Shown: positions 2,906-14,350, numbered from the stretch's first letter. The stretch is 64,000 nucleotides of DNA from Escherichia coli (GCF_041886205.1 NZ_CP169029.1); one strand, 5' to 3'. Notes: a model not told the origin generated them from the letters alone. Numbers and translations: made by a program.

Positions 2906-3288
2906 TCCTGTTCTTTAACTCTTAACGTAAAAACCGCTTCGGCGGCAATGCCGATCAGTTAAGGAGCGGTTGACTGATCCTTAAACTGCGGCACTATAAC
3001 GGCTTCCACTCCAGGGAGCCGTTTTCTTATGCCACTTCTCAATGATCTGTTCGCCGCATGAGCCTCAGCGCTGATGGCGAGGTCGGAGAAAAGGTCCTGT
3101 CGCGCAATGCCATTACTCAGGCCCGGCGACGGGTGGCACCGCGCCTCTGGAATGGCTCTTTCATCAGACGGCACAGATCCGGGGAGCAGAACATTACCCC
3201 AAAGATAGCTGGCGTGTATTACAGCCCTTTGTCGTGCACGGGGGACACCGGATAGCAGGAAGTCTGGGGTATATTGCTGGCCTACAAT

Positions 3289-3370
3289 CTGATACGACGG
3301 AAAGCTACAAAGGCAGTAGAAAAGCATAAAAGAGTGCTGAAAGAAATCAGCTTCAAATTTGCCGTATCAG
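3289..3370 (+). repeat. Imperfect direct repeat, copy A (~80 bp) flanking accessory PTS/porin module
   Basis: ctgatacgacggaaagctacaaaggcagtagaaaagcataaaagagtgctgaaagaaatcagcttcaaatttgccgtatcag is repeated with roughly 85% identity at 9475..9554 in the same orientation. Confidence 0.8.
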
Positions 3371-3566
3371 AAAGTAGATGAAATCAGACATTATCTAATA
3401 TTATATTTTGGTTAAAATAGATATCAGAATTTAGCTATCCAATCGGTTTAATAAAATGAACCCGATTAAGATTGCTATGTGCTGAATGTATTTCATTTAA
3501 ATATAAATTAAAAAGTCGCCAGCAAGCTTATTTAACAGAACCGATAAAATAAAAAATGATATAAAT

Positions 3567-4613
3567 TTAGAACCAAAATTCAAGACCGGCGCGGTAAAAA
3601 TAGTCATTACTTTCTGAATTATAGGCGTCAGTTCGACCAATACGGACATAAGGGAGAAAACCATTTTCCATATTCATCATTAACTGTAAAGACGTCACTT
3701 TATCGGCGGTGTCTTTCTGGGTGACATTGTCTATTTTATAATCATTATTTTTGGCATACCCTAGCTTAGCACCATAGATACCATGCCAGTATTCGCCAAT
3801 TAAACTATAGGCATCCTGGGTGCTTTTAACATGGGTAATAAGGTCGGTCGTTTGACCATTTTTATAGCCCGCGTAAAACCTCAGACCAAGATCTGTAATG
3901 GGTATCTCGAGGCCCAAAACATAACCAGAGGCATCCTCCAGATTGTCATTTAACGTGTCATCGGTCGGTTGAACTGATTTGTTGCGAGTTTCTTCATAAG
4001 CAACATGTACTTTCACTGTAGAGAACGGCGTCCAGGTTACCCGTGAGCTGTAAGTCGTCGATCCAGAAACCGTAGAATCATCGCGATTAACGCTGAGAAC
4101 CACATCAAATCCCCCATAGTCTTTTGTTGCAAGGCTACCGTCATAGCGCACCATATTCGACATGCGATTGCTTTGATGCCAATGAACGTCACCTCCCCAG
4201 TCAAAAACGCGACCGAGACCGGGGTTGGTATAAGGCCAGTCAATGATTTCGTATAACGCCCCCTTCATGCGGCCAAAGCGAAGTTTCCCATACTTACCTT
4301 CAAACCCCACAAAGGTATCAAACTTTCCCAGACCAGAGTCGTTGGCCTCATAACCAACATAACCACTTTCAATCTGGAATATAACATTTACACCTTCAGT
4401 TATTTCTTTGTTCCCGCGAAAACCAATATATGATTCGTTATCGAGAGTATAATCATAATTCCTTTCATTGGCCTGAGTGGTAAAAATGGACATGGCTAAT
4501 TTACCATAGATTTCCAGGTTAAAATCTTTTGGCCCTCCCACTTGCATTGCATTTACTATTGTAGGCATAGTCGTAAGCAAAGAAATGCAAATAATATTAC
4601 TTGTTTTATCCAT
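3567..4613 (-). CDS. Putative outer-membrane beta-barrel porin/channel (signal peptide, C-terminal Phe)
   Basis: 348-aa ORF; N-terminal signal peptide ending ...PTIVNA; alternating hydrophobic/aromatic beta-strand pattern throughout; terminal ...GLEFWF typical of OM beta-barrels; AT-rich coding sequence. Confidence 0.7.
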   Translation of the reverse strand: MDKTSNIICISLLTTMPTIVNAMQVGGPKDFNLEIYGKLAMSIFTTQANERNYDYTLDNESYIGFRGNKEITEGVNVIFQIESGYVGYEANDSGLGKFDTFVGFEGKYGKLRFGRMKGALYEIIDWPYTNPGLGRVFDWGGDVHWHQSNRMSNMVRYDGSLATKDYGGFDVVLSVNRDDSTVSGSTTYSSRVTWTPFSTVKVHVAYEETRNKSVQPTDDTLNDNLEDASGYVLGLEIPITDLGLRFYAGYKNGQTTDLITHVKSTQDAYSLIGEYWHGIYGAKLGYAKNNDYKIDNVTQKDTADKVTSLQLMMNMENGFLPYVRIGRTDAYNSESNDYFYRAGLEFWF

Positions 4614-4833
4614 AAGTTGCCCCAGTAATTTTATATCCGAAAAGAGTAAAACCCGCCTTCATGGAGGGCTGTATTCATTACGCCATGAAAGGGCGTATTA
4701 AAATCTTTAAAAAGAAGTCTTCTGCCAGTCCTGTGAGATTTAAATCCAAAGGCAATAAGACAGAGCCAAAACCAGTGGATGACCACGCCCATAGAACGTG
4801 GTTTTCAGTTGGCAATAAATATTGAAAATAGAA

Positions 4834-5691
4834 TTATTTAGTTCTATTGATAATGTCCAGTGAAGATATTATTTTCTCCACATTATCTCCCCGATTAATA
4901 AATAATAACGCATTGAATAAAACATCAACCATAAAACTTTGTGCAGCGGTAATCGTTGATGAATCTGACTGATAAGGATTTGACGTCCCACCCGTCAGTA
5001 AGACAACATCAGCGTACTGACTTAATGAGGAATGCTTTAGTTTACTAATAACAATAGTCATCGCCCCTTTCTCTTTCACTCTTCTTAACGCATCGACAAC
5101 ATCGCGCGTTTCACCAGAGTGTGAAATCGCAACCACCACATCCTTTTTCCCAACGTTGTTCGAATTTAAGGTCATGGTATGATTGTCGATCAGAGCATCG
5201 ACGTTTGCCATAATTCTCATGAATCGATATTTGGCATACAGGACGGATATGGCTGACATACCAATGCCGTAGAAATAAACCTGCCCCGCTTTGCTCAGAC
5301 CGTCAGCTGCACGCATTAGGGTCTGTTCCTCTTGCAGGGCAAGCGTTTCATTGATAACAACGTAATTATCATTAGCCAGCTGTTGTGCAATCCCTGTCAT
5401 GGAGTTCGTCTGCTCATCAAGAGAAATCACTTTTGATAACAATGTATCGTCTGTATCTGTTTCCAGGCGAAGAGTCGTCTTTAATTCTGAAAAGCCCTTG
5501 TATCCCAGCTTTTTACAAAACCGAATAATAGACGCCTCACCAACATTCATTGCATCCGCTAATTTTGCAATGCTCATATTGATGAATTGCATACGATTAT
5601 TTTTAATAAACTGGTAAATACGTATTTCAGTCTGGGTCAATTCATTAATTCTGGTGTTAATTAACGTGTTAAAGACGACTCGGGTTTTCAT
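4834..5691 (-). CDS. RpiR-family transcriptional regulator (HTH + SIS domain)
   Basis: 285-aa ORF; N-terminal HTH segment (IAKLADAMNVGEASIIRFCKKLGYKGFSELK) and C-terminal SIS-like region (VVVAISHSGETRDV); last gene of the PTS operon, 7 bp downstream of the IIA gene. Confidence 0.85.
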   Translation of the reverse strand: MKTRVVFNTLINTRINELTQTEIRIYQFIKNNRMQFINMSIAKLADAMNVGEASIIRFCKKLGYKGFSELKTTLRLETDTDDTLLSKVISLDEQTNSMTGIAQQLANDNYVVINETLALQEEQTLMRAADGLSKAGQVYFYGIGMSAISVLYAKYRFMRIMANVDALIDNHTMTLNSNNVGKKDVVVAISHSGETRDVVDALRRVKEKGAMTIVISKLKHSSLSQYADVVLLTGGTSNPYQSDSSTITAAQSFMVDVLFNALLFINRGDNVEKIISSLDIINRTK

Positions 5692-5698
5692 TAAGTAC

Positions 5699-6004
5699 TC
5701 ACTCCATCTTTTTATAAACCTCTATCAATTCTGTCACAAGTTCACGGCAAAGCATACCTGTCATAAGGTGATCTTGGGCGTGAACCATCACCAGAGTGAT
5801 TTGCAGTTTACCTACCCCCTCATCCAGACCAATTAGCCGAGTCTGCACCTCGTGTGCCTGCCTGAAGGCATCGTCAGAAACCTTTAAAGAGGCTTCCGCT
5901 TCAGCAAAGCTCCCCGCTTTGGCGAACCTGAGCGCCTCCATGGCACAACTGCGACCTTCGCCAGCGGCGATAATCAGCGACATCACATCATTTTCATAGC
6001 TCAT
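5699..6004 (-). CDS. PTS EIIA component, lactose/cellobiose family
   Basis: 101-aa ORF with size and helical pattern of the lactose/cellobiose IIA family; conserved His region (VMVHAQDHLM). Confidence 0.85.
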   Translation of the reverse strand: MSYENDVMSLIIAAGEGRSCAMEALRFAKAGSFAEAEASLKVSDDAFRQAHEVQTRLIGLDEGVGKLQITLVMVHAQDHLMTGMLCRELVTELIEVYKKME

Positions 6005-6040
6005 TTAAATTATCTCGTGTTAGGTATCGGTGGATACGAT

Positions 6041-6352
6041 TCATTTTGATGAAATCAGATCAACGGCCTGTTGATACACTTTTTCACCATTCATAGCCCC
6101 ATACAGTAACGGGCTGATGGCCTCTGATTTCTTGCCATTCATTTCTGCCAGCTTTTGTATTTCCGTCAGCTTAAATCGAATCTGAGGCGCAACCAGTACG
6201 ACGTCATAATTCGCGATGACATCTTTCAGAACATCAACGCCGTGAGCTTCAATAACTGATTCATGGCCGACGGAATTGGCGTAATCTTTCATTCGCTTCA
6301 TTAACATTGAGGTAGACATTCCCGCAGCGCACACTAAAAGTATCTTATTCAT
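6041..6352 (-). CDS. PTS EIIB component, lactose/cellobiose family
   Basis: 103-aa ORF starting MNKILLVCAAGMSTSMLMK; the phospho-Cys loop CAAGMSTS is diagnostic of cellobiose-type IIB. Confidence 0.9.
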   Translation of the reverse strand: MNKILLVCAAGMSTSMLMKRMKDYANSVGHESVIEAHGVDVLKDVIANYDVVLVAPQIRFKLTEIQKLAEMNGKKSEAISPLLYGAMNGEKVYQQAVDLISSK

Positions 6353-6376
6353 AGCAATTACCCGTCATTGATAAAA

Positions 6377-7921
6377 TTATGTCACAGTAATATGTAAACC
6401 ACTCATCCGCCGGAAAGGGGCGGAAATGGAAGTGATCGTAGGACTGCGGCCGTTAAAGCTATAGTGAATATTTTCCATCCAGGTCTTTTCGATTTCAGAC
6501 TTAATTTTATCGAACACCATCGTTTCCTTTTCTTCAAATGAGGAATAGCTCTGGCCAATTGAAGGTAAATATTCAAACTGAACAGGGAAGCGGACTTCGG
6601 TCTGGTAAGCCCAGTCCGATACCAGCCTTTCTTTTAAGAAACGTTCGATAGCGTCAGCATTATCGCCCATGGTCGAAAAGACAAGGTTCGCTATCCCCGT
6701 ACCTAACGAATTACACGTTGTGTTCCAGCCTGCGTAGCCCTTAATGGTATCGAGTGCGCCGGCTTTATCCAGCGCCCGAATAAGTTCAGTTTCACCGCCG
6801 TTTGACATCGCCACATCGATGACTACCACTGACACCTGCAAAGCTCTGCTGGCAATTTCTTTTGCATAGGTCACCAGGTCACGATGGGTGTAGTAAGTGA
6901 TATTTTTATACTTTGGCTTCCGCACACCGGTATGCAGGTTATAGCCATAGCTAATATCAAAAGCCTCCTGCATTATCTCACCGCACCCATTGATCGCTAA
7001 AACAGGCAGCGAGGCATCATTATCGACCAACGTTATACCCGACGCGGCTGCATACGAACGCAGTGAGTGTATAAAAGGACGATCTTCATAATTCGGGATA
7101 TAGGTTTTAAACAGTTCGTTTGAATAGAGTGTGGTGGCTATAAAATCCTTTTTCCTCATCGACAAATAGGCTTTGGTCAACAATGTGCATCCAGACTCAT
7201 CGGTGCCAGGATGAACAAACACCCGGTCCTGTACCCCAAGCAGGGATATCTTTTCGTAAATGCGTTCCTGATCCTGCATCGTAAAACCAAATTCCGCGGT
7301 ATCGTCCAGCGGGATTATCAGCTGATCGATAATCTTTTCATCAACGAGTTCTATCGCATTCTCAATGAGCTGCAGATTTTTACTTCTGCGCGACAGCCAG
7401 TCGTCAAAGGAAGCAGAATTAATAGCGGAACGATGTGCAAGCAGATGCGCTTTTTCGTCTTCGCTCAGCCCGACACGCTTCTCTTTGTCAGACAGATAAC
7501 CAACCTGAAAAATTGAATGCCCGATATGTGCATAGTAATCCGGTTCTTCTTCACTGGAATTATATTTTGGCGTACGTAGCACCAGTGAAGATGCATAAAT
7601 CTTAAGTGCCGGATAACTTTCTTTCAGTGTTTTAATTTTATTTAACCTTGCTATAAGCTCAGTTAATTCCATCTGATGAATACGCGCGGGAAAAAGTCCA
7701 CCGTAGAGATACATATCCAGGCTGATAATTAACGCATCGGAATCGGCACAGTGGCTGTTTATAAAGTCATCTACAGCCTGATGTGAAGCTGGTTGTTTTT
7801 TGTATCCTAAAATCTCTTTCGCTGGCATTTTTAACGAAATATTGCTGTCCATCGAGGCCAGAGAAATCAGGAAGTCATAGTTATAAGGTCGGATATCCAG
7901 AGGTATGCTAATTATATTCAT
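6377..7921 (-). CDS. Uncharacterised 514-aa protein embedded in PTS operon (possibly DUF4127-like)
   Basis: Long intact AT-rich ORF, tightly spaced between the IIC and IIB genes (15 bp and 24 bp gaps); no signal peptide or TM segments evident; no catalytic motif I can assign by eye. The family guess comes from memory of size and PTS context only. Confidence 0.6.
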   Translation of the reverse strand: MNIISIPLDIRPYNYDFLISLASMDSNISLKMPAKEILGYKKQPASHQAVDDFINSHCADSDALIISLDMYLYGGLFPARIHQMELTELIARLNKIKTLKESYPALKIYASSLVLRTPKYNSSEEEPDYYAHIGHSIFQVGYLSDKEKRVGLSEDEKAHLLAHRSAINSASFDDWLSRRSKNLQLIENAIELVDEKIIDQLIIPLDDTAEFGFTMQDQERIYEKISLLGVQDRVFVHPGTDESGCTLLTKAYLSMRKKDFIATTLYSNELFKTYIPNYEDRPFIHSLRSYAAASGITLVDNDASLPVLAINGCGEIMQEAFDISYGYNLHTGVRKPKYKNITYYTHRDLVTYAKEIASRALQVSVVVIDVAMSNGGETELIRALDKAGALDTIKGYAGWNTTCNSLGTGIANLVFSTMGDNADAIERFLKERLVSDWAYQTEVRFPVQFEYLPSIGQSYSSFEEKETMVFDKIKSEIEKTWMENIHYSFNGRSPTITSISAPFRRMSGLHITVT

Positions 7922-7936
7922 GTGCTCTTTCTCTGA

Positions 7937-9259
7937 TTATTTCTGTTTATTCATGGCGAAAACAAATGGCAGATAAATGATAACCGACAAGCTGATTAAA
8001 AATACGGATAGCACCGCAGCTCTCCAGTCTCCTCCCGTAGCCAGGAAGGCGCTAATCACTGGTGGCGTTGTCCATGGCACAAGAACATATGTATGGTTAA
8101 TCAAATCCATTGCCGTCGCGGCATAAGCAATCACGATGCTGATAATCGGAGTGAATAAAAATGGTACAATTAGCACCGGGTTGAACATAATTGGCAAACC
8201 AAAAATGATGGGTTCATTTATGTTGAACAACATCCCAGGAGTTGCCAGACGAGTAATCGCACGATGCTCTGATTTTTTCGCTGCAATCCATAAAGCAATC
8301 AGTAAGCCGATTGTCTGGCCTCCGCCGCCCATAAATCCAAAGGCATCGATGAACGGTTTTGTGACGATATGTGGGATTTCAAGGCCAGCCTTAAACGCGG
8401 CAGTATTTTCCTGAATCGCCACCAGCAGGGTTGTCTCAGTAATAGGGTACATGATACTGGCACCATGGATCCCTGCCCACCATAATCCGTTTTGCGTCAA
8501 AAGTAGTCCTATTACTCCGCTCAGACCCTGTAAAATATTTTGCAGCGGAGCCTGAATCATCAGAGTAACGATTTCATGTATGTTTTTGTTGAAGAGACTG
8601 CTTAACGACCATGCAAAGAGACTCAGCAAGGTTAACACCAGGATCATCGGTATTAATACGTTAAAGCTCCTTGATACGGAGGGGGGAACTGAATCAGATA
8701 AAGTAATTTTCAATTTAGATGAGGCCGAAACTTTGCGAAAAAGTTCAGTGGAAATAAGCGCCACAAATATGCCTACAAACATACCAGACGCGCCACTTTC
8801 ATTGCCGCTGATTAGCCCCGAAACCTGAAAAACCTCGCCCGTCGGCGCTGTAACGGGAATGGTGACCGGGAACAAAACAAATAAACATGCCAGTGAGAAG
8901 ATGGCATACGTTATCCCATCCTCGCCATAGCTGTTGGCTAATCGATATGAAATCATCACCGTTGCCAGAAAGGCGAGAATATTCAGCGTTCCGTTATAGA
9001 CGCGGATGCCAATTTCCTGTAGGTGGCGAACCCATGCGCCTTCCAGCCCCAGAAAACCGACTAAACCGGATTCGCCGTTGAGCAATACATTATTTATTAA
9101 TATAAATAGAGACGCAGCAATAATTAAAGGCATGAGCGCGACAAATGATTCCCTCACTGCCGAAAGATGTCGCTGTCCTGAAAAATCGCCCGCCCAATTA
9201 GAGATCTTGTCAATGAAAACAAGACCACTCCCACTTTTAATTTTATTGATGAAATTCAT
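7937..9259 (-). CDS. PTS EIIC permease, lactose/cellobiose family
   Basis: 440-aa polytopic membrane protein with multiple hydrophobic segments; first gene of the operon IIC-unknown-IIB-IIA-RpiR. Confidence 0.85.
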   Translation of the reverse strand: MNFINKIKSGSGLVFIDKISNWAGDFSGQRHLSAVRESFVALMPLIIAASLFILINNVLLNGESGLVGFLGLEGAWVRHLQEIGIRVYNGTLNILAFLATVMISYRLANSYGEDGITYAIFSLACLFVLFPVTIPVTAPTGEVFQVSGLISGNESGASGMFVGIFVALISTELFRKVSASSKLKITLSDSVPPSVSRSFNVLIPMILVLTLLSLFAWSLSSLFNKNIHEIVTLMIQAPLQNILQGLSGVIGLLLTQNGLWWAGIHGASIMYPITETTLLVAIQENTAAFKAGLEIPHIVTKPFIDAFGFMGGGGQTIGLLIALWIAAKKSEHRAITRLATPGMLFNINEPIIFGLPIMFNPVLIVPFLFTPIISIVIAYAATAMDLINHTYVLVPWTTPPVISAFLATGGDWRAAVLSVFLISLSVIIYLPFVFAMNKQK

Positions 9260-9474
9260 ATAAGAAAATCTCGCGCCCTAGATATTAGTTTCAGCGTATT
9301 TTATTTATCCCCTTTCGTAATACTGTTAGCTTTGTCACAAAACTCCAAAAATTCCAACTAAAATGATACTAAATGGAGTTTTTTTGGTTTTGTAATCTAC
9401 CGTTCTGGAGTCTGGTATTAACAATAAAAGCGGCTTTCGCAGGAGGATAAATCATCAGCATTTGTCCAGACAAG

Positions 9475-9554
9475 CTGATACGACGGGAAGCTATAAAGGT
9501 ACAGAAAAGCATAAAAGAGCGCCGTTAGAAATCAGCTTTAAATTTGCCTTTCAG
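9475..9554 (+). repeat. Imperfect direct repeat, copy B (partner of 3289..3370)
   Basis: ctgatacgacgggaagctataaaggtacagaaaagcataaaagagcgccgttagaaatcagctttaaatttgcctttcag; same orientation as copy A. Confidence 0.8.
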
Positions 9555-9759
9555 TTTATACAACAGAAATGATAGTGCCGGGAAACACGTCGTCGCCGGG
9601 AATGCTCCCAAGAGACTGGAGTATCGGAGGGGAAACCTGGAAGCGCTGTTCATAACAAAACGCCCCGACCGTCAAGGCCGCGGGTGGTGAAGATATCAAA
9701 ACGTCCATGCTGTTCCGCTTAAGTGAACGGCATTGCGCTGCAGTGGGTTTTTTATGCCT

Positions 9760-10584
9760 TCAAAGTAGTAGCGGTAGGGTCGCACTCGCCGTTTGCTGGC
9801 TCACATCGTTGTACTTTTCATCCAGTCCAAACAGCGACGTGGTGAGCAGTTCCACCAACAGCATGACACCAACCTTGGCGTTTAGCGCGCCAGCACTCAA
9901 CGGACCTTCTGGTTTGGCTGCGACCAGTTGAATATCACTCAGCGAAGCCAGCGGACTATGCGGTGTATTACTCAGCGCCAGTATGCGTACACCTTGCTTA
10001 CGCGCCAGTTTAACCACATGCAGCAGATCGCGTGTGGAGCCTGAACTGGATATTGCCACTACCAGCGTGTCTTTGCTTAGCGTTGTAGCGTTCATAGCAG
10101 CACGGTGCATGTCGCTGAACAATTGCGCGGGTTTGCCGAGGCGCAGGAGTTTGTAATGTAAATACTCTCCCAGAATAGCGCTGGCCGCTACGCCATAAAT
10201 TTGTACCGACTGAGCCTGATGCAGCGCCAGAGCGGCTGCTTCCAGTAATGTTCTGTCGAGTAATTTTGCCGTGTCCTGCAGCGCTTGCACGGATTCATTG
10301 ACGACATTGTCAATCTCATCACCGCTGCGCTCTACCAGCTCTCCTTGCCGGAGATCGAGTGCCAGCGCCATCTTAAATTCGTTATAGCCCTTACACCCCA
10401 GCGTACGGCACAGACGTGTGACGCTCGCCTCGCTGGTGTCGCTTTCACGCGCCAGTTCGGTAATCGTCAGGTAGACCACTCTTGCCGGATCGCTAAGCAC
10501 AAACTCTCCCAGCTTCTGTTGAGTTCGACTATATCCATCAACGCTCTGGCGCAATCTCAGCAGTAGGTTTTCATTTTCTGACAT
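9760..10584 (-). CDS. RpiR/MurR-like transcriptional regulator (HTH + SIS)
   Basis: 274-aa ORF; N-terminal HTH (ITELARESDTSEASVTRLCRTLGCKGYNEFK), SIS-type C-terminal domain (LVVAISSSGSTRDL); divergent from the EIICB gene. Confidence 0.85.
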   Translation of the reverse strand: MSENENLLLRLRQSVDGYSRTQQKLGEFVLSDPARVVYLTITELARESDTSEASVTRLCRTLGCKGYNEFKMALALDLRQGELVERSGDEIDNVVNESVQALQDTAKLLDRTLLEAAALALHQAQSVQIYGVAASAILGEYLHYKLLRLGKPAQLFSDMHRAAMNATTLSKDTLVVAISSSGSTRDLLHVVKLARKQGVRILALSNTPHSPLASLSDIQLVAAKPEGPLSAGALNAKVGVMLLVELLTTSLFGLDEKYNDVSQQTASATLPLLL

Positions 10585-10710
10585 GCAAAATCCTTAATGC
10601 GTTTCTCTGCCGATAGTGTGGCGGAAAGTAGGGGAGAGATGCTAGTCATTTTAAAAAAGTATGATCGGTGCCCTGGTTTTTGATGGTAATTTTCATTTTT
10701 ATAATTAGTT

Positions 10711-12306
10711 GTGGTAAAAATTTTCATCAAAGAGCGGGGAGATGAAAAAATGATGCAAATATTTAGCGGCGCTTCGTCAGGCGCATGGTTTGAAAAAGCG
10801 CAGCGGTTCGGCAAATCGTTCATGCTGCCGATTGCGGTATTGCCCGCAGCGGGGTTGTTGTTGGGGATTGGTGGGGCTCTGTCGAATCCCAATACGCTGA
10901 CGGCCTACCCATTCTTGAATGTCGACTGGCTGCAGGCAATTTTCACGATCATGACCAGCGCAGGTTCTATCGTGTTTGCCAACCTGTCGGTGCTTTTTGC
11001 GGTTGGTGTTGCCGTGGGACTGGCGAAAACGGATAAAGGCACGGCGGGCCTTGCGGCATTGCTGGCTTTTCTGGTGATGAATGCCACCATCAATGCTTTG
11101 TTAACGCTCAACGGAACGTTGGCGCACGAAAATCCAGGTGCTGTGGGCCAAGGGATGACGCTGGGCATTCAGACGCTGGAAACGGGCGTTTTTGGCGGGG
11201 TCGTGATTGGTCTGGTCACCTGCGCACTGCATAACCGTTTCAATAAAGTCTCACTCCCTCAGTTTCTTGGCTTTTTCAGTGGTTCGCGTTTTGTACCGAT
11301 TATCAGTTCGCTTGCCGCGATTGTAGTGGGGGTGATCATGACGGTGGTATGGCCGCATTTCCAGAAGCTCATTTTTGGACTGGGCGGTCTGGTGGATGCG
11401 ACGGGCTATCTGGGGACGCTACTGTATGGTTTCATTCTGCGTATGCTTGGCCCACTGGGTTTACACCATATCTTTTATTTGCCGTTCTGGACAACAGCGC
11501 TGGGAGGGAGCGAAATCGTCAACGGTCAACTGGTCGAAGGCACCCAGCGTATTTTCTTTGCCCAACTTGCCGATCCGAATACGCAGCAGTTTTATGCCGG
11601 TACCTCGCGCTTTATGTCCGGGCGCTTTATCACCATGATGTTTGGCCTGCTTGGCGCATGCCTCGCGATGTACCACACGGCAAAACCGGAGAAGAGAAAG
11701 CTTGTCGCCGGACTGCTGTTGTCGGCGGCCCTGACTTCTTTCCTGACGGGCATCACTGAGCCTATTGAGTTCTCCTTCCTGTTTGTGGCTCCGGTGTTAT
11801 ATGTCATTCACGCCTTCTTCGATGGTCTGGCGTTTATGATGGCGCATATTTTACATATCACTATTGGGCAAACCTTTTCGGGTGGACTGATCGATTTCCT
11901 CCTCTTCGGCGTGCTACAGGGGGAAGCGAAAACCAACTGGATGTACGTCCCCTTGGTTGGGGTTCCGTGGTTCTTTCTTTACTACTTCACCTTCCGTTAT
12001 TTGATTAACCGTTTTAACTGGCTGACGCCCGGGCGCGAGAACACAGCCCAGGTGGAGTCCGGTCTGCCTCAGAGCGAACGCGCAGCGGCAGTCATCGCCG
12101 GACTGGGAGGCAAAGAGAATCTGGAAGAGGTGGACTGTTGCGCCACACGCTTACGCGTGACGGTGAAAGAGAGCAGCAAGGTAGATGAAGCTGCGCTGAA
12201 AGCGACCGGAGCGCGTGGCGTAATTATTCGCGGCAACGGTGTTCAGGTGATTTATGGCCCGCATGTCACCATAATTAAAAATGAAGTCGAAGAGATCTTA
12301 TCATGA
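10711..12306 (+). CDS. PTS EIICB component, glucose/N-acetylglucosamine superfamily
   Basis: 531-aa ORF; N-terminal IIC membrane domain, C-terminal IIB domain with the phospho-Cys motif ([11 protein letters not shown]). The start may instead be an internal Met at about 10750 (MMQIFSG...). Stop overlaps the next gene's start (ATGA). Confidence 0.85.
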
Positions 12307-12995
12307 TGAAAACTGTACTGGATTCCCTGAAAGGTAAACTAATTGTCTCCTGCCAGGCGCTGGAAAATGAACCCCTGCACAGCCCGTTTATTATGTCGCG
12401 TATGGCGCTGGCGGCAGCGCAGGGCGGTGCGGCAGGTATCCGTGCTAACAGCGTGGTAGATATTCGCTCGATCAAAGAGAGCGTCTCCCTGCCGGTAATA
12501 GGGATTATCAAGCGTGATTATCCGGGCTGCGAGGTGTTTATTACGGCCACTTTGCAGGAAGTGGATGAGCTGATGACCGTTGAGCCGGAAATTATTGCTC
12601 TGGATGCGACAGCGCGCCCGCGCCCCGGTGGGCAAATGCTGGAAGAGCTGGTTATGCAAATCCGTGTCCGCTATCCGTCCGTACTGCTGATGGCGGATAT
12701 CGCCACCGTCGATGAGGCGGTAACAGCCGAGCGGCTGGGTTTTGACTGCGTGGGCACCACGCTCTATGGCTATACCGCGGACACTGCCGGGCATGTAATG
12801 GTGGATAACGACTGCGGTTTTTTACGTGAGGTGTTGGCGGCGGTCACAATACCGGTCGTGGCGGAAGGTAATATCGATACCCCGGAACGCGCCGCACGTT
12901 GCCTGGCATTAGGCGCGCATACCGTGGTGGTTGGAGGCGCTATCACGCGTCCGCAGCAGATAACGGCACGATTTGTCGCGGCGATCGCCTCGTAA
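12303..12995 (+). CDS. Putative N-acetylmannosamine-6-phosphate 2-epimerase (NanE family)
   Basis: 230-aa ORF ([26 protein letters not shown]...) with NanE-like TIM-barrel pattern; translationally coupled to the EIICB gene. Confidence 0.8.
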
Positions 12996-13066
12996 AGCAT
13001 CGATGGGGCATGATACTTTGGCGGGGATCTGCGATAATTAACGTTTATCCCCATATTGAGAGCGCT

Positions 13067-13738
13067 ATGCAGTACCCGATTAACGAGATGTTCCAGACCC
13101 TGCAAGGTGAGGGTTACTTTACCGGCGTCCCCGCCATTTTTATTCGTTTACAGGGATGCCCGGTTGGCTGTGCCTGGTGCGACACCAAACACACCTGGGA
13201 AAAGCTTGAGGATCGGGAAGTCTCCCTTTTCAGCATTCTGGCGAAGACCAAAGAGAGTGATAAGTGGGGGGCGGCGAGCAGTGAAGACTTGCTGGCTGTC
13301 ATTGGTCGCCAGGGATACACCGCGCGGCATGTGGTGATTACGGGGGGGGAGCCTTGCATTCATGATTTGCTGCCACTGACTGACCTACTCGAAAAGAACG
13401 GTTTTAGCTGCCAGATCGAAACCAGTGGTACTCATGAAGTACGCTGCACACCGAATACCTGGGTTACCGTATCGCCAAAGCTGAACATGCGCGGCGGCTA
13501 TGAAGTGTTGTCACAGGCACTGGAGCGAGCCAACGAAATCAAGCATCCTGTGGGGCGCGTACGCGATATTGAAGCACTGGATGAACTACTGGCAACGCTG
13601 ACCGATGATAAACCGCGAGTCATTGCACTGCAGCCGATTAGCCAAAAGGATGATGCCACACGATTGTGCATTGAAACCTGTATTGCGCGTAATTGGCGTT
13701 TGTCGATGCAAACACATAAATATTTAAATATTGCCTAA
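13067..13738 (+). CDS. queE: 7-carboxy-7-deazaguanine synthase
   Basis: Start taken at the internal ATG 13067 of ORF 12899..13738 (MQYPINEMFQTLQGEGYFTGVPAIFIRLQGCPVGCAWCDTKHTW), giving a 223-aa radical-SAM protein with CxxxCxxC-type cluster motif. Confidence 0.93.
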   Translation: MQYPINEMFQTLQGEGYFTGVPAIFIRLQGCPVGCAWCDTKHTWEKLEDREVSLFSILAKTKESDKWGAASSEDLLAVIGRQGYTARHVVITGGEPCIHDLLPLTDLLEKNGFSCQIETSGTHEVRCTPNTWVTVSPKLNMRGGYEVLSQALERANEIKHPVGRVRDIEALDELLATLTDDKPRVIALQPISQKDDATRLCIETCIARNWRLSMQTHKYLNIA

Positions 13739-14077: not shown

Positions 14078-14350
14078 GAGTTCCCCGCGCCAGCGGGGAT
14101 AAACCGTTCGCTGGCAATCCACTCAGGAATTTCGGGAAGAGTTCCCCGCGCCAGCGGGGATAAACCGGGCAGTACCGACATGGACGGTCACCACGAGTTG
14201 AGTTCCCCGCGCCAGCGGGGATAAACCGTGTATAGCGCCAAAATTGACGAAAGACATGTTGAGTTCCCCGCGCCAGCGGGGATAAACCGGTTGTAGCTGA
14301 CAATGTAAATCATGGATTTACGAGTTCCCCGTGCCAGCGGGGATAACCAT
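14078..14350 (+). CRISPR. Type I-E CRISPR array: 5 repeats (last degenerate), 4 spacers of 32 bp
   Basis: 29-bp repeat GAGTTCCCCGCGCCAGCGGGGATAAACCG at 14078, 14139, 14200, 14261; degenerate terminal repeat gagttccccgtgccagcggggataaccat at 14322..14350. Spacers at 14107..14138, 14168..14199, 14229..14260, 14290..14321. Confidence 0.97.

Follow-up and report, generated by a model that had tools for sequence, protein, structure and literature searches.

The interval between eno and queE

The DNA analysed here is a 64,000-nucleotide stretch of Escherichia coli sequence (NZ_CP169029.1), referred to as the window. Between eno and queE, it carries six genes on the minus strand that encode a porin, a MurR/RpiR regulator, the PTS components IIA, IIB and IIC, and a DUF4127 protein (Table 1). 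A preliminary description of this locus had listed the same genes, with the DUF4127 gene as an unknown, and its impression of an AT-rich interior is confirmed by a GC content of 42.2% at 3372-9469 compared to 53.2% for the rest of the window. The cargo shows 82-87% DNA identity to loci L053 and L055 (from 3362/3413 to 9382/9391), and a Pantoea locus (L010) has the identical gene order. In other Enterobacterales, the unit occurs free of insertion sequence (IS) material, with 46-53% amino acid identity in Pantoea and 86-87% at two other chromosomal sites; the cargo relatives are likewise AT-rich within GC-rich hosts and lie at other loci without the repeat described below and without IS pieces. 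The AT-rich porin/PTS/DUF4127 operon is foreign passenger DNA inside an IS-bounded unit. A search for a plasmid vehicle of the cargo returned only distant DUF4127 genes (24-35% amino acid identity), mostly on plasmids of Firmicutes, and we found no literature on DUF4127, the central, enzyme-sized gene of the cargo.

The operon is bracketed by two direct repeats, 6,186 bp apart, that share 69 of 80 positions and are aligned with a single 1-nt gap (86% identity; E 1.4e-21 against the whole 64-kb window) and have no third copy in the window. The pair had been described as about 80 bp long and about 85% identical, which holds with a shift of about 5 bp to the left, but the weaker similarity claimed for some 35 bp upstream of each copy is absent: only 5 of 35 bases match in register and 14 of 35 at the best shift, while random 35-mers from the window agree at 8.8 +/- 2.6 positions.

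Table 1. Features of the eno-queE interval, in window coordinates.
Feature	Position	Strand	Remarks
Left target-site duplication copy GCTTCGGCG	2936..2944		loop and right stem of hairpin AAAAACCGC-TTCG-GCGG
IS4-family remnant A	2945..3363	+	by tblastn of WP_001368890.1 and blastn to the reference IS
IS left terminal inverted repeat (IRL) GCAATGCCGATCAGTTAAG	2945..2963	+	identical to IRL of the reference IS in L002 and L003
IS-encoded strong hairpin	2998..3023	+	just 5' of the transposase start codon
Repeat copy A	3284..3363	+	transposase codons about 354-381
Cargo, AT-rich six-gene unit	3362..9391	-	DNA homology to IS-free loci L053 and L055
Porin_4 porin	3567-4613	-	
MurR/RpiR regulator	4834-5691	-	
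PTS IIA	5699-6004	-	
PTS IIB	6041-6352	-	
DUF4127	6377-7921	-	
Lactose/cellobiose-family PTS IIC	7937-9259	-	
Orphan spacer (78 bp)	9392..9469		between cargo homology end and remnant B; matches neither cargo relatives nor reference IS
IS4-family remnant B	9470..9736	+	codons about 354 to end (frameshifted, small indels) plus right end
Repeat copy B	9470..9548	+	same transposase codons as copy A
IS right terminal inverted repeat (IRR) CTTAAGTGAACGGCATTGC	9718..9736	+	identical to IRR of the reference IS
Right, decayed target-site duplication copy GCTGCAGTG	9737..9745		6/9 match to left copy

Identity of the repeats

Both repeats are overlapping fragments of one decayed IS4-family transposase gene. 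The reference for this comparison is a 1,432-bp element of plasmid NZ_CP024480.1, with transposase WP_001368890.1, that also occurs in the sil/cop island of E. coli ATCC 8739; this transposase scores 254 bits (cut-off 115) on NF033592, the NCBIfam profile for DDE transposases of the IS4 family (Pfam DDE_Tnp_1). The insZ pseudogene of E. coli K-12 is presumably a member of the same group. Remnant A keeps the left end and 5' UTR followed by codons 1-7 (3029-3049), 74-139 (3049-3245, frameshifted) and 345-380 (3256-3363), and it has lost codons 8-73 and 140-344 including the catalytic region. It was recognized by tblastn with the reference transposase (E 1e-16 and 9e-16) and by blastn to the reference IS, which gave 95% identity over the left 109 bp (2945-3053), 71% over 3049-3213 and 75% over 3256-3362, yet it is absent from the RefSeq annotation. 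Remnant B matches codons 356-432 (tblastn, E 6e-11) and is 75% identical to reference positions 1145-1432 (blastn); RefSeq labels it "IS4 family transposase, frameshifted, missing N-terminus". At the protein level, the transposase fragments are 41-81% identical to the reference. An NCBIfam scan of the concatenated remnant A translation gave no match, the sequence being too degraded, and the Y-2-R-3-E-6-K signature is missing: the corresponding reference motif YHSRWEIEVGFRNLK falls within codons 140-344, which are deleted from remnant A and absent from remnant B. The element is a dead relic that has lost its catalytic region, and no longer an active member of the family. The initial statement that no integrase or transposase is present is therefore wrong: although no gene is intact, the repeats derive from a transposase gene, and the IS has kept its two terminal inverted repeats.

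Compared to the reference IS, the copies in the window form a distinct sub-lineage with about 75% DNA identity and are dead, with 6.1 kb of passenger DNA between the split or truncated pieces. Copies A and B share 15 derived differences from the reference in the 80-bp overlap while they differ from each other at only 10 sites and one 1-nt gap, so that we regard them as sister copies of one IS sub-lineage. Plasmids yielded only matches of about 75% when searched for closer or intact members, a lineage-specific 35-nt pattern recovered nothing but the same island on two contigs from JGI metagenomes, and among 5,426 complete E. coli genomes the sub-lineage was seen solely in the 11 that carry the island. 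Remnant A also retains a strong hairpin in the IS 5' UTR, flagged as terminator-like in a scan; the segment 2990-3040 around it folds at -22.5 kcal/mol (z -6.4), and an Rfam match to ctRNA_p42d at this hairpin stays below threshold (33.7 bits against a gathering score of 50).

With this identity of the repeats, there is next to no chance that they represent a small dispersed family of the REP/BIME type or a duplicated small RNA gene. Copy A does fold better than shuffled sequences (z -4.3), as a small RNA might, but the fold of copy B is not significant (z -1.4), the predicted structures of the two differ, and neither copy matches an Rfam family above threshold. Furthermore, only two copies exist in the 64-kb window, and homologous sequences in 3,004 genomes sit inside IS4-family transposase genes. 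Copy number, folds, Rfam and transposase homology together effectively refute both versions of this reading. The earlier idea of a segmental duplication of an intergenic or small RNA-like element consequently fell away, given that the copies are pieces of a transposase gene, and the search of other genomes proposed to reveal a dispersed family or small RNA returned only matches in genes annotated "IS4 family transposase".

Ends, target site and origin of the unit

Remnant A starts with the left terminal inverted repeat 39 bp past the eno stop codon and remnant B ends with the right one; the two agree at 17 of 19 positions when the right end is reverse-complemented, and both 19-bp repeats are the same as those of the reference IS. 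These ends lie 339 bp to the left of copy A (2945) and 188 bp to the right of copy B (9736). The 9-mers directly outside match at 6 of 9 positions, for which the binomial probability of at least as good a match by chance is about 0.01, and are consistent with a decayed though imperfect target duplication. Beyond the right 9-mer follow the T-run of the original terminator and the stop codon of a second RpiR gene. At two uninterrupted paralogous loci (L008 and L009), GCTTCGGCG occurs once and is directly followed by the same T-run and RpiR stop codon, and the target reconstructed in this way folds as a terminator at -10.9 kcal/mol. Copies of the reference IS have perfect 9-bp duplications in GC-rich hairpins (CCGCTTCGC in L002 and CCCGTCAGG in L003); insertion into a GC-rich hairpin or terminator loop is thus shared, and so, probably, is the duplication length. 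Taken together, the inverted repeats, the flanking 9-mers and the empty-site comparison indicate that a 6,792-bp unit (2945-9736), inserted into a terminator hairpin, is bounded by outer IS ends and a target duplication.

The uninterrupted target came only from paralogous RpiR/ptsG/nanE loci elsewhere, and none of the E. coli genomes has eno adjoining the second RpiR gene without IS material. It had been suggested to look in other E. coli genomes for an empty eno-queE site with a single copy of the repeat, but K-12 departs from the window sequence at the eno stop codon and has ygcG/yqcG there, with no single-copy junction. The "IS4 family transposase" pseudogene beside the paralogous RpiR gene in L008 has no DNA homology to remnant B and tells nothing about the history of the latter. 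A pattern scan had flagged a hairpin between the right duplication and the IS tip (CATTGC/GCAGTG), but we rejected the idea that the three differences in the right duplication copy are compensatory changes rebuilding it as a terminator, as the real sequence folds at -7.1 kcal/mol compared to -8.3 kcal/mol for the unmutated one (z about 0).

These boundaries also bear on the proposal of att-like direct repeats that arose when a genomic island integrated site-specifically. Such repeats would indeed bracket an AT-rich foreign segment as seen here, but there is no integrase or tRNA gene at the site and no recombinase open reading frame between eno and queE, the repeats derive from the coding sequence of a DDE transposase and lie inside the real boundaries with their inverted repeats and 9-bp duplication, and relatives of the cargo occur at other loci without the repeat. 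We consider this origin very improbable and effectively refuted by the transposase-gene fragments, the lack of a recombinase and the position of the boundaries. An old mobile insertion, as first suspected, was correct in that the repeats are scars of the insertion that brought or received the module, but its true boundaries are the IS ends at 2945 and 9736.

Two fragments that overlap by around 80 bp at 86% identity fit either two truncated IS copies or one IS with a duplicated patch. The likeliest history, with about even odds, starts from a composite IS-cargo-IS transposon whose inner IS parts were later lost. The operon would have lain between two copies of one IS sub-lineage in direct orientation, and transposition from the outer ends would have placed the unit into a terminator loop, a type of target that the reference IS uses elsewhere. 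Inner deletions may then have trimmed the left copy by 200 bp at its 3' end and the right copy by 1.1 kb at its 5' end, with two further internal pieces lost from the left copy, until about 80 bp of mutual homology were left. A short overlap would be the expected survivor, since a direct-repeat composite with longer homology would lose its cargo by recombination. In favor of this history, remnant A displays large deletions as the local mode of decay, and the cargo is self-contained and IS-free elsewhere. The two-copy stage is deduced rather than seen, as searches of plasmids, 5,426 E. coli genomes and JGI metagenomes revealed neither another member of the sub-lineage nor a relative in which an intact IS copy flanks the cargo on each side. 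Other observations speak against a composite: remnant A holds all IS sequence 5' of the overlap and remnant B all of it 3', which is exactly the geometry of a single split IS; two independent random truncations would leave an overlap of 0-100 bp with an estimated prior of about 7% (before survivorship); the target duplication is imperfect; and the first 109 bp of remnant A are far closer to the reference IS than all other parts (71-75%).

This geometry could tentatively be explained by a single IS4-family element that entered the terminator and into whose transposase gene the operon integrated later, duplicating about 80 bp, though we find this somewhat doubtful. Integration could have occurred by a single crossover of the Campbell type with a circle that bore the operon and a short related IS fragment or by duplicative illegitimate insertion, and the duplicated stretches would have diverged afterwards or before. 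Every IS part is present once except for the overlap (IRL to codon about 381 in remnant A, codon about 354 to IRR in remnant B), both IS-derived parts, leaving aside the first 109 bp, show equal divergence from the reference, and a second IS copy was found neither in plasmids nor in JGI metagenomes. Moreover, a cargo-less junction in one assembly (L067, see below), minus an IS1, restores a continuous IS reading sequence. However, no standard insertion mechanism makes an 80-bp duplication, and a RecA crossover would be very inefficient where 80 bp are 86% identical and no identical run exceeds 17 bp. If the copies were once identical, 14% of later divergence has to be assumed, and the model needs a donor circle with, by chance, an 80-bp relic of the IS that had lost sequence at either end; in addition, flank SNPs mark L067 as a derived loss of the cargo and not an ancestral empty IS. 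A specific version, in which the overlap is the footprint of cargo capture by integration of the operon into a resident IS via a short, diverged IS-homologous patch, seems distinctly unlikely to us; if true, the outcome would be an island bounded by IS ends that are intact and still open to mobilisation in trans.

Cargo loss and relation to known transposons

The island is present in 11 of 5,426 complete E. coli genomes, where the eno locus of one lineage is the only site of the IS-bounded unit, and it is undergoing erosion in E. coli. Among three natural deletions of independent origin, two end at positions that bear no relation to the repeats: one removed 3520-10913 with 1-bp microhomology, and another joined 3216 to 9305 through an IS1. 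In the third (L067, GCA_052260635.1), copy A runs up to 3362 and then continues as copy B, with the cargo gone, and precisely at the junction lies an IS1 between the copies of an 8-bp duplication (AAATTTGC). We interpret L067 as a derived loss because its flank SNPs group it with strains that demonstrably had the cargo at one time.

It had been suggested that the repeats could allow precise excision of the module, which would proceed by homologous recombination. L067 provides the one assembly with the predicted single hybrid copy, its junction at the end of the shared repeat and a flank haplotype that marks a loss. However, the IS1 with its 8-bp duplication on this junction is the signature expected of IS1 intramolecular transposition or IS1 x IS1 recombination, so that IS1 action is at least as likely in L067 as recombination between the repeats. 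The hybrid is A-type at all discriminating sites, which means that a crossover would have to fall into the last 8-9 identical bases. The other two deletions bypass the repeats, and an IS1-free hybrid junction was found in none of the 5,426 complete genomes. Efficient RecA pairing needs a minimum of roughly 25 bp of identity, and the repeats, with no identical run beyond 17 bp, are therefore a poor RecA substrate. We thus regard repeat-mediated excision as improbable, and the repeats are functionless at present. One possibility, linked to the capture reading, is that the octamer AAATTTGC, common to both copies, is an IS1 hot spot that allows clean removal of the cargo as in L067.

Composite transposons like Tn5 (IS50) and Tn10 (IS10) of the IS4 family or Tn9 (IS1), an example with direct orientation, offer the closest comparison. 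Similar to these, the unit has a passenger between IS-derived ends with intact outer ends and, probably, a single target duplication around the whole, and the genes carried form a self-contained operon with a foreign base composition. Unlike in composite transposons, neither flanking IS is complete and the existence of two copies is deduced solely from the 80-bp overlap; the fragments are in direct orientation, in contrast to the inverted IS copies of Tn5 and Tn10, and the cargo is a catabolic PTS/porin operon instead of resistance genes, with no sign of current mobility. Encoding no transposase, the unit would be immobile unless a related enzyme acted in trans on its intact 19-bp ends. Regarding its target, the insertion lies within an extragenic palindrome and its duplication spans the loop and part of the stem, as for palindrome-targeting insertion sequences like ISRm22, an IS4-family member found in REP elements (Tobes and Pareja 2006, PMC1525189). 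Unlike for ISRm22, the three independent insertion sites considered here are ordinary intrinsic terminator-like hairpins and not members of the REP family.

The repeats thus belong to an ordinary decayed transposon scar, and no novel type of repeat, small RNA or excision site is involved. The main value of this result lies in annotation: the eno-queE interval of a rare E. coli lineage holds a 6.8-kb transposon relic with IS4-family ends, half of which (remnant A) is missed by RefSeq, and the "att-like" repeats of the island are transposase-gene debris. It also adds another example of an insertion sequence targeting terminator hairpins and, on the composite reading, one of direct-repeat composites decaying to minimal homology. 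Of greater practical interest than the repeats is the passenger, a conserved, horizontally mobile unit of porin, lactose/cellobiose-type PTS, DUF4127 and RpiR genes that has been repeatedly inactivated in E. coli.

The direct repeats and their IS4-family parent

Repeat search and blastn recover the two copies in direct orientation, largely as the preliminary description had it; their alignment spans 80 positions at 86% identity and includes one 1-nt gap (longest identical run 17 bp), and their starts are 6,186 bp apart. Within the entire 64-kb window, copy B is matched with E = 1.4e-21, and there is no third copy. The segment between the repeats is AT-rich as described and encodes, on the minus strand, a Porin_4 porin, a MurR/RpiR regulator, PTS IIA and IIB components, a DUF4127 protein and a lactose/cellobiose-family IIC component (the cargo). 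The weaker similarity that had also been claimed for the ~35 bp upstream of the copies is absent: in register only 5 of these 35 bases match, against 8.8 +/- 2.6 expected by chance.

With the two intergenic regions as queries, 5,426 complete E. coli genomes were searched; an identical island occurs in 9-11 genomes and thousands of weaker matches (60-90%) fall nearly all within genes annotated as "IS4 family transposase", the shortest being matches to the IS left-end region in unannotated DNA. Copy A translates in frame to ...QEVWGILLAYNLIRRKATKAVEKHKRVLKEISFKFA, and RefSeq labels the copy B region an IS4-family transposase, frameshifted and N-terminally truncated. It had been stated that no transposase is present, which is wrong in the relevant sense: the repeats themselves are pieces of an IS4-family transposase gene. 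Our reference is an intact 1,432-bp IS on plasmid NZ_CP024480.1 (L002 1510-2941) whose 445-aa transposase WP_001368890.1 scores 254 bits on NF033592 (cut-off 115); E. coli ATCC 8739 (L003) carries a copy 98.7% identical to it. Mapping of both fragments on this IS identifies the repeat as transposase codons ~354-381, the part that both have retained. Remnant A lacks codons 8-73 and 140-344, and remnant B carries frameshifts and small indels. Within the 80-bp overlap, copies A and B have 15 differences from the reference in common, while 10 sites and the gap set them apart from one another; they are sisters from one diverged IS sub-lineage.

Features of the IS-bounded island and its surroundings (window coordinates; IRL and IRR, left and right terminal inverted repeats)
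Feature	Position	Content
Left junction 9-mer	2936-2944	...AAAAACC GCTTCGGCG, then IRL
Remnant A	2945-3363	IRL and 5' UTR, codons 1-7, 74-139 and 345-380 (mapping on reference IS)
Hairpin	2998-3023	just 5' of the transposase ATG
Copy A	3284-3363	direct repeat
AT-rich segment	3372-9469	42.2% GC (remaining window 53.2%)
DUF4127 (PF13552) gene	6377-7921	minus strand
Orphan segment	9392-9469	78 bp before remnant B
Copy B	9470-9548	direct repeat
Remnant B	9470-9736	codons ~354 to end, with IRR at its end; 75% identity to reference IS
Right junction 9-mer	9737-9745	IRR, then GCTGCAGTG GGTTTTTTATGCC TTCAAAG..., the TTCAAAG part being the stop-codon region of RpiR2 (second RpiR gene)
CRISPR repeats	14139-14291	GAGTTCCCCGCGCCAGCGGGGATAAACCG, 61-bp period, 2.5 copies

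RefSeq leaves remnant A, and with it the left end of the IS, without annotation in all carrier genomes, and lists remnant B as a pseudogene. Remnant A starts with a 109-bp stretch (2945-3053) that shares 95% identity with the reference IS and contains a sub-threshold Rfam match to ctRNA_p42d; the other IS-derived parts show 71-75% identity. Readings of the repeats as REP/BIME elements, as an sRNA (Rfam scan) or as marks of an integrase-type island were rejected.

Boundaries, target and order of events

An IS-bounded insertion occupies 2945-9736. The repeats do bracket the module as proposed, but the edges of the insertion lie farther out, 339 bp beyond copy A on the left and 188 bp beyond copy B on the right. 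In 471 other E. coli genomes, a version of the adjoining RpiR2-ptsG-like-nanE genes lies elsewhere at 87-89% identity (at least 468 with the three-gene segment), and in two such loci (L008 and L009) the sequence directly after the RpiR stop codon continues without a break and reads GCTTCGGCG GTTTTTTATGTC TTTAAAG. Since these loci show the target intact, the 6,792 bp are one insertion into a terminator loop. The 9-mers flanking it match at 6 of 9 positions (p ~0.01), consistent with a target duplication that has since decayed, and the reconstructed target AAAAACCGCTTCGGCGGGTTTTTT folds like a typical bidirectional terminator (-10.9 kcal/mol). On either side of both reference-type copies stands a perfect 9-bp duplication, CCGCTTCGC in a GC-rich hairpin of L002 and CCCGTCAGG inside the GC-rich hairpin GCCCCCCGTCAGGGGGGCTTTTTT of ATCC 8739. 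A GC-rich hairpin or intrinsic-terminator loop is the insertion site in three of three independent cases (L002 1501-2950, L003 1849-3297 and the window). This pattern suggests that the reference-type IS4 element picks its targets by structure or terminator, and insertion of ISRm22 into REPs is a precedent for palindrome or terminator targeting by IS4-family members (PMC1525189). At the left edge, the insertion split the stem of the eno terminator from its T-run, and the very stable hairpin predicted within remnant A (-22.5 kcal/mol, z -6.4) may therefore serve as the eno terminator now, making it a candidate for this present-day role.

The order of events behind this structure we infer. We give about an even chance to a composite transposon, in which two directly oriented IS copies would have flanked the operon, the unit would have transposed from its outer IS ends into the terminator, and later deletions would have taken the inner parts of both IS copies. 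Remnant A proves that large deletions happen at this locus, and a composite with long direct-repeat homology would lose its cargo by recombination, so a survivor with minimal overlap is what one would expect. No intact flanking IS copies were found, and plasmids, the 5,426 E. coli genomes and JGI metagenomes yielded no further member of the window's IS sub-lineage. It is possible, though we would not bet on it, that the operon instead inserted into a single IS, splitting it and duplicating ~80 bp, for example through Campbell-type integration at a short IS-homologous patch. Such a split neatly accounts for remnant A holding everything 5' of the overlap and remnant B everything 3' of it, but it requires either an inefficient crossover in an 80-bp stretch with 86% identity or considerable divergence of the copies afterwards. 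A circular donor with an 80-bp relic of the IS is needed as well.

What remains is a dead IS4-family relic, of an element or of a composite, with inverted repeats and transposase homology present and the catalytic region absent. It resembles a Tn9-style direct-orientation composite, with the second IS copy putative here, or an IS with passenger genes, and the search turned up no second insertion site of the IS-bounded unit. Structures of this kind are known, and the relic adds a new, partly unannotated case.

Decay of the island and the eno-queE interval

The island is a rarity, present in 11 of the 5,426 complete genomes, and its cargo has repeatedly been inactivated or lost in E. coli (window 3520-10913; L004, L005, L006, L061, L063 and L067). 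ISEc52 is inserted in the DUF4127 gene of LHM10-1 and CP52E, IS1 in the IIC gene of AH04 and relatives, and L063 has two IS1 copies and an inversion of 5582-6460. For draft assemblies, the survey covered 24 of the 1,120 index blocks that list the RpiR2 protein. Three independent deletions are seen in strains with a common flank haplotype (one clade). VE-T9 and XJ5.2 are missing 3520-10913 with 1 bp of microhomology at the junction; L061, L064 and L065 have 3216 joined to 9305 via IS1 without a duplication; and in L067 (GCA_052260635.1) copy A, A-type throughout as far as 3362, is followed by what continues copy B from 9548 on, with an IS1 between 8-bp duplications AAATTTGC at the junction. The single hybrid copy that had been predicted is thus formally present in L067, but an IS1 sits on its junction, and three origins are not separable here: intramolecular transposition of IS1 into a paralogous octamer, two IS1 insertions followed by recombination between them, or recombination between copies A and B beside a pre-existing IS1. 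Two of the three losses took place without regard to the repeats, and no stretch of identity is longer than 17 bp; as the excision substrates that they were proposed to be, the repeats are weak and occasional at best. An IS1-free hybrid junction ...CAGCTTCAAATTTGCCTTTCAGTTTATAC..., if found, would favour repeat-mediated excision. The fate of the operon suggests that it is useless or costly in its E. coli host.

The eno-queE interval is a region of alternative content (window 2906-13066, K-12 L007 7420-8643), with yqcG and ygcG in K-12 and the IS-bounded unit plus RpiR2, ptsG-like and nanE-like genes in the window's lineage; divergence between the two begins exactly at the eno stop codon. The three-gene segment is not at one site in all carriers, the context in L009 differing from that in L008. 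The copy in L008 (NZ_OZ501679.1, 4999-8569) is 89% identical to window 9760-13330, also has a truncated queE and sits in a tRNA-Phe island beside an integrase; its evident source is an eno/queE-type locus in a different lineage, from which it was moved. Downstream of queE, a short type I-E-like CRISPR repeat array adjoins a truncated FGGY kinase gene (ygcE).

The cargo operon and its relatives

Among 100,044 species-representative genomes, there is no close relative of the DUF4127 protein; the best match is in Candidatus Pantoea haifensis (46%), whose locus (L010) matches the window gene for gene across all six, in unchanged order and at 46-53% amino acid identity, and has no IS. A larger protein collection contains two relatives (86-87%) on long contigs, L053 and L055. 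Here too the gene order is unchanged and IS4 material is absent; the two modules (44% GC) occupy different sites in the chromosomes of GC-rich hosts, where the flanks are mostly 55-58% GC. The window is homologous to these contigs at the DNA level between 3362 or 3413 on the left and 9382 or 9391 on the right, which sets the junction between remnant A and cargo at 3362/3363 with a 2-bp overlap. The orphan segment before remnant B has no match among the retrieved sequences and may be the last trace of a donor flank. Given IS-free relatives with the same gene order, the cargo is a coherent operon with a horizontal mobility of its own, and it just happens to lie between IS ends here.

The DUF4127 gene is without an NCBIfam model, and none of the 8 million papers searched mentions it. 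Homologues at 57-62% occur in Vibrio, Cronobacter and Superficieibacter, and several retrieved loci (Pantoea L010, Clostridium/Clostridiaceae L019 and L022, L053 and L055) embed DUF4127 in PTS operons of the lactose/cellobiose type that also encode an RpiR regulator. The protein is probably an uncharacterised sugar-phosphate enzyme, and the passenger operon with its DUF4127 is a more interesting loose end than the repeats.
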